Shown here: positions 2,467 to 25,461 of the stretch, piece after piece
Numbering within the stretch: the first letter of the stretch is position 1
Layout of the letters: every line of letters begins with the position of its first letter
Source of the DNA: a phage
DNA: 64,000 nucleotides
Direction: 5' to 3' (one strand)
Sequence record: OZ413489.1
Position numbers and translations under genes: made by a program
The notes under the pieces: generated by a model
Seen by the model: only the letters and a program-made list of their open reading frames with translations
What the model was told of the DNA's origin: nothing
Databases searched by the model: none

Positions 2467-4896
2467 ATGAGCATGTGGTCGTTCGACTTTGAGTCATCCG
2501 GTTTGCTGGAAGACCCAGATCTTTATTATCACTGCGGCCTGTTTAAAGAGCTGAATAAGAACCGTTTTATGCTGTTCCTTCCTCTAAATGACCGCACACA
2601 CTACTCCGAGGAGGATATAGAAAAGGCTAAGAACTTCATTCTGGCAAAGAAAACTCTTTATAAAGATTTTGAAGTTCGCATAGCAGATTTTTCAGAGTTG
2701 GAAGGTTGGCTTACAGGAAATTCTGACTGGTCACCAACAGCTTTGAACTGCCATAACTGCTACAGTTATGACTTTATGCTGATGGAAAGATTATCTGGTA
2801 TTCATTTTGATATGTTCCGTGATCCTAAATGTATGGGGACTATCAACGATCACCAGGTTAACCTGTTTGATACGTTGGCGATGAGCCGAATCTTGTGGCC
2901 TGATCGCCCTTTACCAAAAGGTTGTCCGGACTCTGTATTCAACCCGGTTACTAAGAAAATGCAGCCTGTTGGTCCTCACGGCCTTATGGCATGGGGCTAC
3001 GCCCTTGGTAACCAGAAAGTTCAAATTGATGACTGGCGCGATCTTCCGTTGTGGAAGTATGTGGATCGTGTATTCGAGGACGTTATCATCCAGGAGCTGC
3101 TCTGGAAAGAGCTGGTAGCGGAATCAAAAGGTGTATTCTACGGCAAATCTGACATGCAGAACTTTATGTACGATCCGGCCAAAGAGAAGCCGAAAGGGTT
3201 CAAGAAGATCACCTGGAAGAACGCATTACGTCGAGGCATGCTGCAGCACTTCCTGATGGAGCTGCAGGCCCGTCAGGGTGTATACTTCGACATAGATGGA
3301 GCTATTGCTTTACGTGACCGTTGCGATGCGTGGATGAAAGAAATCGCTGATCGTGTTGAACCACAACTACCTTTAAAAGAGCTGTCAATGTCTCAGCGGC
3401 CCAAGTTCCCTGAAAAGCCGTTTAACCAAGACGGGACAATCTCTAATAATGGTTGGAAATGGTTAAAAGATAAGCTTGGCTATCCTGTAGACATGAGTGC
3501 TTTAGAGTTCAAAGCCCTGCCTAAGCGAGCATTTACCTCTACAGGAGATGTCAGCAAGATGGGGATAAAATGGTGTGAAGAGATGGGCTGCAAAGACCCC
3601 GATAAGATGGCTGATTTCTTGAGAGGCTATATTAAGGGCACCTCCACACCACAACCCTTACCTAAAGAGCTGATGGATCAGGCAATAAGTGATCTGCAGC
3701 AGAAGCGAATGCCTGACTGCAAGATACCTATGAAAATCAGCAATCAGGACGACATCAAGCGATACCTAATCAGTGCTGGTTGGCTCCCAACAATGTGGAG
3801 AACTAAAGATGTAACTAAAGACAGCAAGAAGAAAGCTTTACCTGATGCAGATGTTGATGCACGAGTATATGCATATATGGACGAGCTTTTGGAGTCAGAG
3901 TATTGTGACCTAATTATCAACTTCTGGAACAAAACTGATGCTAAGTTCCAGACAACCGTGCACAAGTTCCGAAGCTTTCCTAACTCCGAAAGGATTAAAA
4001 AGGAAGTATTCGGGAAAATACGTAGAAAAGCCAGGGCACTTATTACTTCTCCGCAACTGAAAGATACGTTTGGACACCTATGCCCAAATCTTGAAAAATT
4101 GAACGGAGAGATGGCTAAAGATATCGTCTTGTGGTTATCATTGCGAAACCGCAGATCGGTCCTTGATCCAATCAAGGAGGATAAGGTTGATACTGGTCTT
4201 CTTAATCACCCACGTTTGAAGATTGACCATAAGCTTCCTGCTAAAAGCTCTGGATTAACAAACACTTCCAGACAGAAACACAGTATTTGTGCAAACATGC
4301 CTAAACCATCTCCTAAAGTAGTTATGGGTAAAGAGATGCGTAGTCTGTGGGGTGTTCCTCCAGGATACTTTGAGATCGGTATTGACGGGTCCAACTTAGA
4401 GCAGCTCATCGGGGCTTGGGGTGCCTTTGAGTTCGACAACGGCTTGTATTATGATGTTGTAAGTAACGGAGACGCACACCAAAACAATGCTGAGGCATAT
4501 ACAAAAGTGGCAGGCAGAGAGGTGTCCCGTAACGACGGTAAACCTATCACGTATGGGGTTATGTACGGGGCACAAAAAGATAAAGTTGCAGATATGCTGG
4601 ACATCTCCCCAGAGTTGGGACAAAGGGTAATCGATGCACTCTGGGATGCCAACCCAGGTCTTAAGGGGCGCAAAGAGGATCTGGAGAAATTCTGGGAAGC
4701 AACAGGTAAGAAGTTTATCTACTCTTTTGATGGTCATGCTATCTGGACCCGATCTAAACACTCTTTACTTAATGCATACCAACAAAATGGCGGTGCATCG
4801 TTGTGTGACTTAGTTGGAATACTCATGCACCACCAGATGGTGAAGCGTGGGTGGTACGATGAAGGTGTTCGTCGTATTATTTATTACCATAAATAA
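2467..4896 (+). CDS. DNA polymerase, family A (T7 / Pol I type)
   Basis: 809 aa; N-terminal exo motif FDFESSG; motif A-like IGIDGSNLEQL; motif B-like KPITYGVMYGAQ. Confidence 0.85.
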   Translation: MSMWSFDFESSGLLEDPDLYYHCGLFKELNKNRFMLFLPLNDRTHYSEEDIEKAKNFILAKKTLYKDFEVRIADFSELEGWLTGNSDWSPTALNCHNCYSYDFMLMERLSGIHFDMFRDPKCMGTINDHQVNLFDTLAMSRILWPDRPLPKGCPDSVFNPVTKKMQPVGPHGLMAWGYALGNQKVQIDDWRDLPLWKYVDRVFEDVIIQELLWKELVAESKGVFYGKSDMQNFMYDPAKEKPKGFKKITWKNALRRGMLQHFLMELQARQGVYFDIDGAIALRDRCDAWMKEIADRVEPQLPLKELSMSQRPKFPEKPFNQDGTISNNGWKWLKDKLGYPVDMSALEFKALPKRAFTSTGDVSKMGIKWCEEMGCKDPDKMADFLRGYIKGTSTPQPLPKELMDQAISDLQQKRMPDCKIPMKISNQDDIKRYLISAGWLPTMWRTKDVTKDSKKKALPDADVDARVYAYMDELLESEYCDLIINFWNKTDAKFQTTVHKFRSFPNSERIKKEVFGKIRRKARALITSPQLKDTFGHLCPNLEKLNGEMAKDIVLWLSLRNRRSVLDPIKEDKVDTGLLNHPRLKIDHKLPAKSSGLTNTSRQKHSICANMPKPSPKVVMGKEMRSLWGVPPGYFEIGIDGSNLEQLIGAWGAFEFDNGLYYDVVSNGDAHQNNAEAYTKVAGREVSRNDGKPITYGVMYGAQKDKVADMLDISPELGQRVIDALWDANPGLKGRKEDLEKFWEATGKKFIYSFDGHAIWTRSKHSLLNAYQQNGGASLCDLVGILMHHQMVKRGWYDEGVRRIIYYHK

Positions 4897-4920
4897 CATT
4901 GTGGCTTCATAGAGTAATCT

Positions 4921-5079
4921 ATGTCGAATAACCTCTTTAACTGCGGGAAGCCTAAACCTTATGGCAAGGTAATCCGCAACGAAGCGCTCAAAAGAGCGAA
5001 CGCTCAGAGGCCATTCCGAAAGGAAGTAGACCAGCAAGTGCGGTCGAAATGGGAGGATTCCTGTGGTTGCTTATCATAG
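4921..5079 (+). CDS. small hypothetical protein (52 aa)
   Basis: ATG ORF below the track size cutoff in the gap after the polymerase gene; weak RBS. Confidence 0.3.
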   Translation: MSNNLFNCGKPKPYGKVIRNEALKRANAQRPFRKEVDQQVRSKWEDSCGCLS

Positions 5080-5163
5080 GAATATGAGATGGTCCGATCC
5101 TACGTGAAAACGTATGGCTATGCACGTAATGGTGCGGGGTAGCTTAACGACCTACCTGAACTA

Positions 5164-13528: not shown

Positions 13529-13718
13529 GCTTAAATCCGCATGGAGCATTGCTGTGGGTGATGAGATCCGTATCCCCGGTGGGAAGACCATTATGAAGAT
13601 ATCTCGTATTGAGTACGAAGGTGACCGTGTATTCCACATCTTCGCAGAAGATGGTCGAGAAATTTATATACAGGCAGGTTCTCACATTTATATCCGTAAG
13701 AAAGGGGACGACAAATGA
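13512..13718 (+). CDS. hypothetical protein
   Basis: 68 aa ORF overlapping neighbours. Confidence 0.45.
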   Translation: MVLMFKLKSAWSIAVGDEIRIPGGKTIMKISRIEYEGDRVFHIFAEDGREIYIQAGSHIYIRKKGDDK

Positions 13719-14044
13719 CAGAAATCATCATTTCAACTGCAGGGTATGTGTTCCTGACAATCATTGCACTGACTATTTTGGTGACAGTGTATGGGTTTGT
13801 TATCCTTCCTATCCTTGAGACATTTAGTTTGTGTCGGTGTTGGAGAAAAGCTTACGGTCCACAACCATGGAAGGACTGGCCCCACCTGGTGCGCTTAGCG
13901 TTCTCTTATGCTTACGATCACTCCAGTAGTGCATGCATAACCGGATACCACGCCCACAACTGGAGCTGGGAAGGGTTGAGGAAATGGAATGTTACAAAGA
14001 CCATACCTCTGCGCATGTACAAACCTAAAAACAAAGACAACTGA
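13715..14044 (+). CDS. hypothetical membrane protein
   Basis: 109 aa; N-terminal hydrophobic segment. Confidence 0.5.
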   Translation: MTEIIISTAGYVFLTIIALTILVTVYGFVILPILETFSLCRCWRKAYGPQPWKDWPHLVRLAFSYAYDHSSSACITGYHAHNWSWEGLRKWNVTKTIPLRMYKPKNKDN

Positions 14045-14079
14045 TACTTGAAAATTCTTGGCATATCAAGTATAAGGGG

Positions 14080-14540
14080 GATTTCTAAAATGGATTTCCT
14101 CCTTTTGATATTTCACCGGGCCGGATATTTTAAAATTCTTAGAAAATCAGAAAATGGATCGAAAACTAAAATGGATTTTTCAGAGTAGGCGCGACAAGCT
14201 GAATAACTCATCCTATCGTTTGCACCATATTCCAGGCCACCATTATAGATTTCCCACACATGCTAACCTCCCTCTACTAGAACTTCCTCCACTTACCCTT
14301 GACCTTCTATGGTAACAATCTAACCGCTATCTTGAAGTTGCTGTGCAGCTTTCCAGGTACTCGATCTACTTTTCATTTCAGGGCTTGGATTTTCTGAAAA
14401 TTTTTCTCGATAAATTTCTCAGTACTCGATCTGTTTTTCGTTTTCTGAATCGGATTTTCTGGAAATCGTTCCGGCTCTCGACCTGAAATTTTTGGGGACG
14501 AAATCGATTTTTCGTTTTCAGAAATGGATTTTTAAAATTT
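14080..14540. repeat. iteron-like direct repeats (AAAATGGAT x4; about 35 bp TCGATCT...GGATTTTCTG unit x3)
   Basis: AAAATGGAT at about 14087, 14151, 14168, 14522; longer units at about 14358, 14422, 14501; AT-rich, no ORF. Confidence 0.6.
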
Positions 14541-14646
14541 CTATATGGGAATATTTTATGGGATACTGTTTTATAGGAAATTGTTACGGAGGGTAATTAG
14601 CGTGCTAATTAAATTTATTAAATGCGAGGAGTTCTCATTTAGAATT

Positions 14647-14838
14647 TTGAATGATAATCATTCTCGTTTGCAGAATAACGGGCAGGCCCGGTGATTGTCT
14701 CCCGGCCCCTACTGCCCCGGCTTGTTATTATAGTATCACACAGGACAAAGAAAGCAAGGATTTTTTGCATAAATTTTTAAATGATAATGATAACCGTTCT
14801 CATTTTATGCAGCGCCCATCCCCGGTGGTTGTCTCCCC
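14647..14838. repeat. two tandem units: Fur-box-like AT core + TTCTCRTTT..GCAG + GC-rich tail
   Basis: Unit 1 14647-14703, unit 2 14779-14838; cores match the Fur consensus at about 15-16 of 19 positions by hand alignment. Confidence 0.5.
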
Positions 14839-15060
14839 CGTCACCGGTGCCTGCCGTCCTTTCGATAGGTATATCGTGCCACCTGGCGGGGCCGCTGTCA
14901 ACACTTTTCAAAAAATTTTTCTAACCTGATGCGCTAACCGCTGCAACCTGGCGGGGTCAGCCTGGCAGGACCTAACTGACCGGGTAGGAGAGAATGAAGG
15001 CTTGTAAACCTGGTGGGCCTATGCTACAGGATAGGTAACAATTGAAGAGGAGGTACAAAA

Positions 15061-15228
15061 ATGAAAGGTAATATGATCCCCCTAGAAAATGTAGCTATTA
15101 ATGACGCTGAGGCTATCGCCCTGGTTGAAAAGGCTATGGCGGGAGCGTTGGAACATAAAGAAGAGTACGAAAAATGGTGGTTAACCTGGCGGGGGCGGCA
15201 GGTGGATTCTATCATAAAAATAATTTAA
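15061..15228 (+). CDS. small hypothetical protein (55 aa)
   Basis: ATG ORF below track cutoff with strong RBS GAAGAGGAGG. Confidence 0.4.
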   Translation: MKGNMIPLENVAINDAEAIALVEKAMAGALEHKEEYEKWWLTWRGRQVDSIIKII

Positions 15229-15236
15229 AATAGTCG

Positions 15237-15266
15237 TTGACAACAAGGTTAATCATGGTATTATTA
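15237..15266 (+). promoter_or_regulatory. sigma70-type promoter (TTGACA, -10 TATTAT)
   Basis: Preceded by AATAGTCG as at 6641. Confidence 0.5.
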
Positions 15267-15314
15267 CCCTACAAGGTGAACAACACCGCACTAACCAGTA
15301 AAGAGGATAAATTT

Positions 15315-24165: not shown

Positions 24166-25461
24166 AATAGTAAGAAATATGATTGTTATATGCGTAAACT
24201 GTAACTCATGTTATCAATCCCTGTATGGATCGCCAGTGGTGCGCATAATAGGTATTATGTTAAATTGCCCGTAATGATAACAGTTCTCACAATGATAGGT
24301 ATTCTCATTCATCCACACAAAATAGGTTGCAAATGTTGTGCCACTGTGTGAACGGCCTGGCCTATTAATTTCTCTCACTGCCTCGATATTTGAGAATTGT
24401 TATAAGAATGAGAAGTATTCCCATTCCGTCCGCCTGGCAGCACTCCTGTAGGTCCTGCAAGGACTCTAGCTGAAAGCTAGACCCTTCGGGCCTCCCTGTA
24501 GGTCAGGTCAAAATCGTGGTAGAATTGGGCCTGTTCAGATATTTCTGGCTGACTCTTCAGGTCTGTGTGGGAAAAGCCAACCTCTCCGGCGGGGCAGGGG
24601 GTCATGACGGGAAAATTGCAGGTCAATTAAAAAATTTACGTGGTGTATGAAGCGCTCTTCAGGTAAGGCATGTATTATGGGATGAAACCCTCTTCAGGCA
24701 ATGATATTTGTGGGTGTGATATTTGCTGGAAAGCCAGATATGACGGGACTCCCGGCGGGGATGGGGTAGTACAGACAGGGAAAATATGAGAATGTAGTTG
24801 GGGAAATTGATCAGACAGGTAGAGTATGGAATATGTTACAAGTATGTTAAATATGGAGGTTGAATATCTGTAGGATTTGTGTGTAAAATCAAAGACTTAA
24901 GGGGTGTTGTGGTATTTTCTATAAATAATTCAAGTTTAATAGGCAATATTTGTCTCTATCCGCTTTGTGTGGTAAACAGATTCAGATTAGATTGGTTTAC
25001 AAGTGTATACATAATATACAAATTAAAGATACAAGAAACCCCCCTCCCCCTTCGGCTACCATTCACCTTTTCCTCTGACTGGTACTTAAACACTTATTCA
25101 GACTCTTCAGGTTATCACCCATATATCATATGGCAGTGACTGGTGTCCTCCGGCCCCTCTTTCGTCACCCGTCCGCTTCGCCATGCTAATGCCATAGCCA
25201 ATGGTTCGGTTGTTCACTCTGTTCACTCAGGTGTATCTCCATACCCCTTCAAACCGAAGAGAACAGAAAACCCGAATTACTCGGTAAAAGAAAAGAGAAG
25301 AACTTAATTTTATCAGGATAGGCAAGAATGTCAAGGCATGACTGCTCACTAAACAAGCAAACAGTCATGTGTGGAAGGTAAGTGATTGTGGTGGTGGGAA
25401 ATTTAGTTGAAAGATGTGTTATAGGTGCTCCCAGCACTTTAGCCGGGTAGCTAATTGTGTG

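Follow-up and report, generated by a model that had tools for sequence, protein, structure and literature searches.

A conserved gene-free repeat module in the early block of rV5-like phages is a candidate replication origin or control hub

What is the role of a repeat-filled gap of about 1 kb that lies among the early genes of an rV5-like phage? Phages of the rV5 type, like their relatives, are often considered for use in phage therapy and biocontrol. Skew analysis could not locate an origin in the rV5 genome paper, and the map in that paper shows an unexplained ‘non-coding’ box, with small ORFs annotated over the locus. We found no paper that describes the module analyzed here. The window, i.e., the whole stretch of 64,000 nt from record OZ413489.1, belongs to a Vequintavirus, an rV5-like E. 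coli myophage with a genome of ~136 kb, and its best match is phage EdH4 (98.5% identity over 13700-15300). Its + strand block, from 1 to ~24 kb, opens with a DnaB-type primase-helicase gene (330-2408) and continues with a family A DNA polymerase gene split by a group I intron and then many small early genes. The array sits in this early block, 3' of the primase-helicase and DNA polymerase A genes, within a gap (14045-15060, 1,016 bp) that separates two + strand ORFs at 13715-14044 and 15061-15228. The product of the former is a 109-aa member of phrog_2531 with hydrophobic stretches.

The gap had been described as about 1 kb without a convincing ORF, and this description holds. Each frame contains 9-13 stops across the region, and the annotators disagree: ten Vequintavirus GenBank records place zero to three tiny ORFs here, on either strand. 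The ORF at 14154-14315 (52-53 codons) is open in most genomes, but it is read in two frames in different clades to give unrelated peptides, is cut short in JEP1 and has no ATG in BP9; its openness results from a C-rich, G-poor composition. A protein-coding reading was rejected, as no frame or peptide is conserved. The region was also called AT-rich, which is correct only in a moderate sense (GC 0.36 at 14045-14650 against ~0.43 for the window). The gap is a gene-free module of ~1 kb of cis-acting DNA, and the repeats at 14045-14540 form its left two-thirds.

The module begins with region A (14043-14185, + strand), which contains GATAYTT three times (14043, 14107 and 14124; missed by the sequence-only reading), then AAAATGGAT(TT) three times, and an inverted copy of the right motif of the units, in which 14132-14148 is 88% complementary to 14388-14404. 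AAAATGGAT had been counted four times. Three of these copies are exact (14087, 14151 and 14168), while the fourth, GAAATGGAT at 14521, carries one mismatch; exact copies number five in 64 kb against 1.31 expected. Overlapping the TGA stop of the upstream ORF is an inverted repeat (14041-14051/14066-14076) with 11-nt arms that are complementary at 10 of 11 positions. The 8-bp hairpin proposed at this gene end is therefore a real inverted repeat, but it is neither conserved nor terminator-like: its stem is A+T-rich and followed by AAGGGGGATTTCT, it has no G+C-rich stem and no T-run, the terminator scan omits it, and in slur12 and other genera it is missing, with direct GATATTT repeats in its place. 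Region A is followed by a variable spacer (14190-14355, + strand) that is C-rich and G-poor (C 0.32, G 0.13) and contains frameshifting indels within the genus. Its C/G ratio of 2.55 is the highest in the early block. Within the genus this ratio stays at 1.9-2.5; it is 2.1 in ABPH49, and 0.6-1.1 in Ro1, Hena1, the PVP-SE1-like phage and F5M2A. The composition of the + strand of this spacer would suit a Rho-loading (rut) site, and a Rho-dependent terminator calls for at least 80 nt of C-rich, G-poor RNA that is neither translated nor structured.

Three units follow on the + strand. The repeat of about 35 bp reported from the letters alone is indeed present in three copies, but these are imperfect and share a 47-nt core (14347, 14412 and 14486) with 70-74% identity and start-to-start distances of 65 and 74 nt. 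Unit 1 (14354-14418) contains GTACTCGATCT (14357), TTTTCATTTC, GGATTTTCTG (14387), GAAAATTTTTC and an extra CTCGAT half-site (14406). Unit 2 (14419-14485) contains GTACTCGATCT (14422), TTTTTCGTTTTC (14434), GGATTTTCTG (14452) and CTCGAC (14477), and unit 3 (14486-14545) contains the degenerate left motif GAAATTTTTGGGG, GACGAAATCGAT, TTTTTCGTTTTC (14508) and GAAATGGATTTTT (14521). Units 2 and 3 have the 25-nt pattern TTTTTCGTTTTCNGAAWYGGATTTT in common (two copies against 0.00 expected), and TCGATCT, TTTTCGTTTTC and GGATTTTCTG are each exact in two of the three units and degenerate in the remaining one.

An AT-rich stretch of low stability (14500-14640), which includes a 15-nt tandem repeat at 14554-14585, comes next and is a candidate unwinding region. 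The GC content is 0.22 at 14500-14559, and by stability calculation the 60-bp window at 14527, just after unit 3, ranks fourth among the least stable in 64 kb (dG -65.1 against a mean of -79.7). On the + strand, Fur-box-like palindromes (14618-14676) then appear as a degenerate copy at 14621-14639 and a strong one at 14650-14668, followed by the CCCGGTGATTGTCTCCC element (14687-14703), which is present in all genera just 3' of the operator/promoter. A second + strand copy of CCCGGTGATTGTCTCCC (14821-14837) lies 3' of a second palindrome (14786-14804). This operator/promoter part is outside 14045-14540 yet belongs to the same conserved module.

The unit motifs are absent from the rest of the 64 kb window and from the remaining 72.8 kb of EdH4, and a search of 5,426 E. 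coli genomes gave no match to the array sequence. The sole plasmid match to the array turned out to be a mislabelled phage genome. The claim that the region is distinct from the array near 23.8 kb is right for the unit motifs, which are private to this locus, but not for the whole module, since its Fur-box-like palindromes and GATATTT clusters also occur in the divergent control region at 24.3-24.7 kb.

Alignment of ten Vequintavirus genomes demonstrates that the repeat array is under purifying selection. The units (14400-14520) are 0.95-0.99 identical and the segment 14640-14880 is 0.95-1.00 identical, while the coding flanks reach 0.90-0.96; the repeats are thus more constrained than the neighbouring genes. 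In the same genomes, the spacer (14200-14360) is only 0.70-0.77 identical and has frameshifting indels. This near-neutral spacer lies directly beside the units and serves as an internal control for constraint.

In other genera, sequence-level similarity is detectable only for the operator/core part (14605-14766). The architecture of the whole gap is kept in six further Vequintavirinae lineages, represented by phiTE and F5M2A (Certrevirus), Ro1 (Mydovirus), a PVP-SE1-identical Seunavirus, Hena1 (Henunavirus) and ABPH49, and in several IMG/VR contigs. The layout starts from, or overlaps, the upstream stop codon with GATATTT in three to six copies, then AAATGGWTTT-type motifs in one to four copies in most lineages (in a motif scan, the Certrevirus loci and ABPH49 gave none; related GATTT repeats take their place). 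It continues with a spacer that keeps a length of ~160-185 nt and varies in sequence, three units with the consensus gGGtaCTCGATCGatTTTTCaatTTC.aaAtcGtATTtTct, 10-15 nt and GAAAAAATTTTT, the AT-rich stretch, one to four palindromes of the form AAATGA(G/T)AATCATTCTCATTT, the last of which lies within TTGAAT-18 nt-nAGAAT, and finally GGTG(A/T)TTGTCTC.

Loss of the repeat spacing in relatives had been named as the observation that would speak against a functional element, and the spacing is kept. We compiled unit spacing for 16 non-Vequintavirus loci and three Vequintavirus rows. Three units are found in 15 of the 16 non-Vequintavirus loci, and 14 of these 15 have them 74-78 and then 63-68 bp apart (sum 141-143); ABPH49 has 68 and then 65 bp (sum 133). 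The remaining locus (L072) showed only two left motifs, and phiTE has an extra unit copy 107 bp upstream. The Vequintavirus spacing is 65 and then 74 (sum 139), with the exact left motif present twice and the third unit placed by the repeat family. Unit periods differ by 1 nt between genera and are not multiples of 3. A pattern scan of IMG/VR returned mostly chance single matches, plus more Vequintavirinae-like contigs with the same layout. Outside the subfamily, Phapecoctavirus anhysbys (Stephanstirmvirinae) shares the layout and retains GATATTT, TATCTCAAA and the palindromes, but the units at this position are 72 nt long, lie 138 bp apart and are unrelated in sequence. The repeats are more than chance, as the set of motifs and its spacing are kept across genera.

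The way in which the units vary bears on what recognizes them. The left motif is GTACTCGATCT in Vequintavirus, G(T/A)(T/A)CTCGATCG in Mydovirus, Seunavirus and ABPH49, and GGTCTCGATCG in Certrevirus, while Hena1 has ACTCGAAAGG in unit 1 and GACTTGAG(A/G)GG in units 2 and 3. The motif varies by lineage, and the copies within one genome change together. Phage anhysbys was isolated on E. coli K-12, the same host as several Vequintaviruses, yet its unit sequences are unrelated. Since the units track the phage lineage and not the host, the pattern points to a phage-encoded, lineage-specific protein that would bind the units, and it is what one would see if an iteron co-evolved with its cognate protein instead of serving a factor of the host. 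The palindromes, by contrast, are invariant, which points to a factor supplied by the host or else to one of phage origin that is deeply conserved. The unit motifs are partly palindromic (CTCGATCGAG) and found in both orientations, which fits recognition of double-stranded DNA; in unit 2 of Ro1 and unit 1 of ABPH49, CTCGAT-GGTTTTTCAAA-ATCGAG combines a T5 tract with inverted sub-repeats.

Together, these comparisons establish a unique, strongly constrained DNA-level multi-site array that would serve a lineage-specific factor. The likeliest role of the module is that of a replication origin or a control hub. Our preferred reading, to which we assign a probability of roughly 40%, is that the array is an iteron-type nucleoprotein site that would mark a replication origin. 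What the analysis shows directly is the anatomy of the array, its purifying selection, the conserved number and spacing of its units, its occurrence at a single place in the genome and its lack of coding and RNA-structure signals. For the binding protein, the melting, the helicase loading and the origin activity itself, we infer the following order of events. A phage-encoded DNA-binding protein would recognize the three two-part units, each with a left site (GTACTCGATCT, of the partly palindromic CTCGATCG type) and a right site (CGGATTTTCTG) ~25 nt downstream. Related GGATTT and GATATTT sites 200-300 bp upstream might join in, and a higher-order nucleoprotein complex would form over the ~140 bp of units, perhaps with the spacer of fixed length as a loop. 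This complex would mark the origin, and the AT-rich stretch at 14500-14640 would be melted to load the DnaB-like primase-helicase encoded 12 kb upstream. The neighbouring early-type promoter with its Fur-box-like operator could provide transcriptional activation.

How well does the locus agree with known features of origins? It has direct repeats whose number and spacing are kept among relatives, and, by stability calculation, an adjacent AT-rich stretch that should unwind easily. An adjacent or overlapping initiator gene was not found: the flanking genes are unrelated between genera (membrane protein, HNH-AP2, NADAR, phrog_12463), no initiator was recognized when selected window proteins and the genes flanking the module were scanned against Pfam and PHROGs, and the small helix-turn-helix-like protein that adjoins the module in phiTE and anhysbys has no Vequintavirus homologue. 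The DnaA boxes or IHF sites of a host-assisted origin were not found either, as no DnaA box of at least 8/9 occurs in the window’s gap, with scattered single matches in other genera, and the IHF consensus matches once among ten modules. The original proposal of an origin-like or regulator-binding element is partly supported: it gains from the constraint, the uniqueness and the lack of an RNA or coding signal, but lacks consistent DnaA boxes, IHF sites and an adjacent initiator.

Further observations count against an origin. The units, at 65-78 bp, are far longer than classical iterons of 17-22 bp, and the rightward promoter has the AT-rich stretch on its upstream side. Besides the lack of an initiator candidate and of consistent DnaA and IHF sites, there are no helically phased A-tracts (no periodicity near 10.5 bp), and the Hena1 units are free of GATC. 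Moreover, large lytic phages may depend mainly on recombination-dependent replication.

We rank the origin reading first; its main rival draws on the right end of the module. Here, TTGAAT (14647), 18 nt and CAGAAT (14671) form a promoter-like element with the strong palindrome (14650-14668) inside it. Its early type consists of an A/T-rich tract, TGTTGAAT, 18 nt and nAGAAT, and it matches the early promoter consensus AAAA(N3)TGTTGAC(N19)TATAAT reported for Certrevirus. This rival, on which we remain doubtful, is that the array is an upstream control array at a transcription-unit boundary: a phage early protein, possibly with host factors, would switch the Fur-box promoter(s) on or off, the C-rich spacer would act as a Rho-dependent stop to read-through out of the preceding early genes, and the module would time the next gene block or make its expression conditional, and would not serve replication. 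This reading accounts for the early-type promoter at the end of the module, the palindromic operator within the promoter spacer, the limited distance between the last unit and the operator (115-157 bp across loci), the recurrence of the palindromes and GATATTT clusters at 24.3-24.7 kb, the spacer C/G ratio at the top of the early block, and an upstream operon without an intrinsic terminator. It does not explain why the unit motifs occur here and at no other promoter, and three 70-bp units plus region A are elaborate for one promoter. The -10 element is weak and loses its key A in some genera, and the spacers of Ro1 and Hena1 are not C-rich. A sigma-70 promoter scan found no site on either strand between 13369 and 15236, and promoter and terminator scans of 14045-14540 returned nothing but one weak hairpin in unit 3.

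The operator itself resembles a host site. As the Fur consensus, we used the 19-bp palindrome GATAATGATAATCATTATC or the 7-1-7 form TGATAATnATTATCA. The palindrome at 14650-14668 (AATGATAATCATTCTCGTT) matches it at 15 of 19 positions and the second one (14783-14801) at 16 of 19; only three matches of at least 15/19 occur in the 64 kb window, two of them in this module. The operator element is found in at least 356 phage records, and the IMG/VR relative L028 has a perfect 7-1-7 box (TGATAATCATTATCA). Compared with E. coli Fur boxes, the predicted phage operator shares the 19-bp consensus match and has 16 consecutive bases (ATAATCATTCTCGTTT) identical to the promoter of fhuA, a Fur-regulated gene in E. 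coli K-12; it differs in its lytic phage context and in that most phage copies have TGAGAAT half-sites. It is tempting to speculate that Fur on the phage operator, beside the iteron array, gates an origin or early switch by host iron, although we regard this as unlikely. If true, a strictly lytic family with more than 350 sequenced genomes would couple origin firing or its next early genes to host iron. We found no paper on Fur boxes in rV5-like phages or their relatives.

A third reading, which we hold to be quite improbable, is that the module is the pac site, at which the first headful cut would be directed by small terminase bound to the units and to region A. P1 pac consists of repeated short GATC motifs in clusters. 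The resemblance to it lies in the unique site and the repeated, partly GATC-containing sequences, as most genera have 18-29 GATC per kb in their units, compared with 5.4 per kb over the genome; the P1 site, however, lies within the terminase region. Known pac sites are located within or beside the small terminase gene. In EdH4, the large terminase gene occupies 90.4-92.0 kb, and the module is found at 11.1-12.3 kb, inside the early block and ~56 kb away on the circular 136 kb map, and this distance weakens the reading. GATC is absent from the Hena1 units, and the starts of GenBank records are not obviously clustered at the module. A pac site must exist all the same, because rV5-like phages are terminally redundant and circularly permuted, and in phiTE a sub-molar ‘pac fragment’ has been observed. 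A universal GATC/Dam role was also considered and rejected, since GATC is not avoided genome-wide and the Hena1 units lack it.

Equally improbable in our view is that the region works as one or more non-coding RNAs, e.g., as a repeat decoy against host defence like the phiTE pseudo-ToxI. It is probably transcribed by read-through, as the upstream genes have no terminator, one local hairpin is predicted in unit 3, and repeat-based antitoxin mimics are known in this phage group. The folding scores, however, are not significant for the units (z -1.59 and +0.43 on the two strands), region A (z -1.14) or the right half of the gap (z -0.01 and -1.47), and RNAalifold gave no consensus structure for 24 aligned units from eight genomes. 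At the gathering threshold, Rfam matches only the group I intron elsewhere in the window, and a permissive search of 13900-15300 gave one chance-level match and none that reached a gathering score. The partly palindromic motifs are found in either orientation, and the units are spaced 63-78 nt apart, unlike head-to-tail repeats at ~36 nt or, for the ToxI type in general, ~34-45 nt. A direct link to the phiTE pseudo-ToxI was dropped because that locus lies elsewhere, at 106.7 kb. Finally, that the module consists of small coding genes or decayed gene remnants with functionless repeats is hardly credible: several annotators call ORFs of 30-60 codons here and the one at 14154-14315 is open in most genomes, but every frame is full of stops, that ORF shifts frame or breaks between clades, the unit periods are not multiples of 3 and change by 1 nt between genera, and the units exceed real genes in conservation, whereas no part is less conserved than the spacer with the ‘ORF’.

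No other unique cis-acting site in the genome is as clear as this module, which offers a precise target of ~600 bp. If it is an origin, it would open the way to origin-based interference plasmids, show which segment to keep in rebuilt or shortened genomes and provide a handle for finding its initiator protein, and its long two-part units with their fixed span of ~141 bp would broaden the picture of iterons.

The candidate origin can be compared with several known systems. Like lambda ori, pSC101, R6K and P1 oriR, it has spaced direct repeats with partial dyad symmetry, and, as in lambda ori and the plasmid iteron origins, an AT-rich meltable stretch is adjacent, a promoter is nearby and the repeats vary by lineage. 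The phage units differ from those of iteron origins in being 65-78 bp long, two-part and only three in number, and in having neither an adjoining initiator gene nor consistent DnaA or IHF sites. The non-coding origins of lactococcal phages (c2, sk1, phi31 ‘Per’ elements) are likewise AT-rich and repeat-rich, lie in the early block beside an early promoter, and interfere with the phage when cloned. Their repeat units are shorter (10-14 bp), and their sequences and hosts are unrelated. The T7 primary origin and T4 oriF and oriG are alike in having a promoter beside an AT-rich unwinding stretch, in phages with their own polymerase and helicase-primase, but they have no iteron array and their AT-rich stretch is downstream of the promoter, whereas here it is upstream. 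The origin of the Vibrio satellite PLE is a non-coding region with semi-palindromic iterons of the RepA_N type, whose sub-repeats converge on an A/T tract (PMC7145576). It resembles the phage module in the gene-free region, the several repeat classes and the units of the CTCGAT-GGTTTTTCAAA-ATCGAG type, while most phage units have no perfect inverted pair and the host and type of element differ. As a repeat-based cis-acting DNA site, the module thus belongs to a known kind of element; what is new is the length of its units, their two-part form, the fixed span of three units and the Fur-box neighbour.

Right of the two-part repeat units in the gene-free module, Fur-box-like palindromes occupy 14618-14676 and 14777-14805, and the strongest of them, within 14618-14676, is part of an early-type promoter (TTGAAT-18 nt-CAGAAT), where it falls in the spacer. 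This palindrome has 16 nt of identity in common with the promoter of E. coli fhuA. The Fur-box-like element is kept across genera, in at least 356 phage records, and the IMG/VR relative L028 carries a perfect TGATAATCATTATCA. These features suggest that a lytic-phage promoter may be under the control of host iron status.

Two copies of CCCGGTG(A/G)TTGTCTCCC are present in Vequintavirus (14687-14703 and 14821-14837), and a GGTG(A/T)TTGTCTC form lies directly downstream of the operator and promoter in most genera examined, with diverged versions in Ro1 and ABPH49. A search for conserved RNA structure around the element found none. Further right, AACCTGGCGGGG repeats surround the start of the next gene in three to four copies (14880-14896, 14945-14961 and 15183-15199, with a variant at 15008-15018), and as far as 14960 the repeat does not vary among members of the genus.

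Near 24 kb, the divergent control region (24273-24425 and 24385-24724) contains palindromes of the same Fur-box-like class at 24273, 24291 and 24407, as well as four clustered GATATTT motifs. Thus, two motif classes are common to both non-coding regions. GATATTT is over-represented in the window as a whole, with 27 occurrences against 12.2 expected.

GATATTT also marks the start of the module. In most lineages the motif overlaps the stop codon (TGA) that ends the gene before it (TGATATTT; 14042-14049 in the window), as seen in the loci L009, L010, L012, L014, L028 and L037 from relatives. The upstream genes are nevertheless unrelated among lineages, encoding a membrane protein, an HNH-AP2 endonuclease, NADAR or phrog_12463, and in several genera HNH endonuclease genes flank the module. 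The module thus appears to have a recombination junction at its left edge.

No other 160 nt of the early block on the + strand are as C-rich and G-poor as the spacer at 14190-14355, which lies between the GATATTT repeats and the units and has a C/G ratio of 2.55 against a median of 0.82. Within the genus its sequence drifts while its composition and length stay, and it is possibly a Rho-loading site. An ORF of 52-53 codons at 14154-14315 is open in most Vequintavirus genomes; it uses two different frames that encode unrelated peptides, and is a composition effect that misleads gene callers.

Several observations concern the rest of the window and the public records. At 4881-5116 the family A DNA polymerase gene is split by a group I intron (RF00028 in Rfam, 64.7 bits). 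CP057073.1, listed as a 137.6 kb 'plasmid' from an E. coli isolate, is in fact the genome of a Vequintavirus. Some 16-21 'Campylobacter phage' records (MG0656xx; host entry C. jejuni) match this E. coli phage across the gap, at 93-98% identity among the matches listed.

Unlike the palindromes and GATATTT, the motifs of the units are confined to the 14 kb locus. Where unit 1 meets unit 2, TCGATAAATT (14407-14416) is invariant in the genus and absent from other genera; presumably it equals the reported high-affinity H-NS nucleation motif. In Phapecoctavirus (phage anhysbys, L010), two 72-nt units with 29-nt sub-repeats, 138 bp apart (2227-2436 of that locus), occupy the position of the three CTCGATC units of Vequintavirinae, and the total unit span is nearly equal in the two groups.
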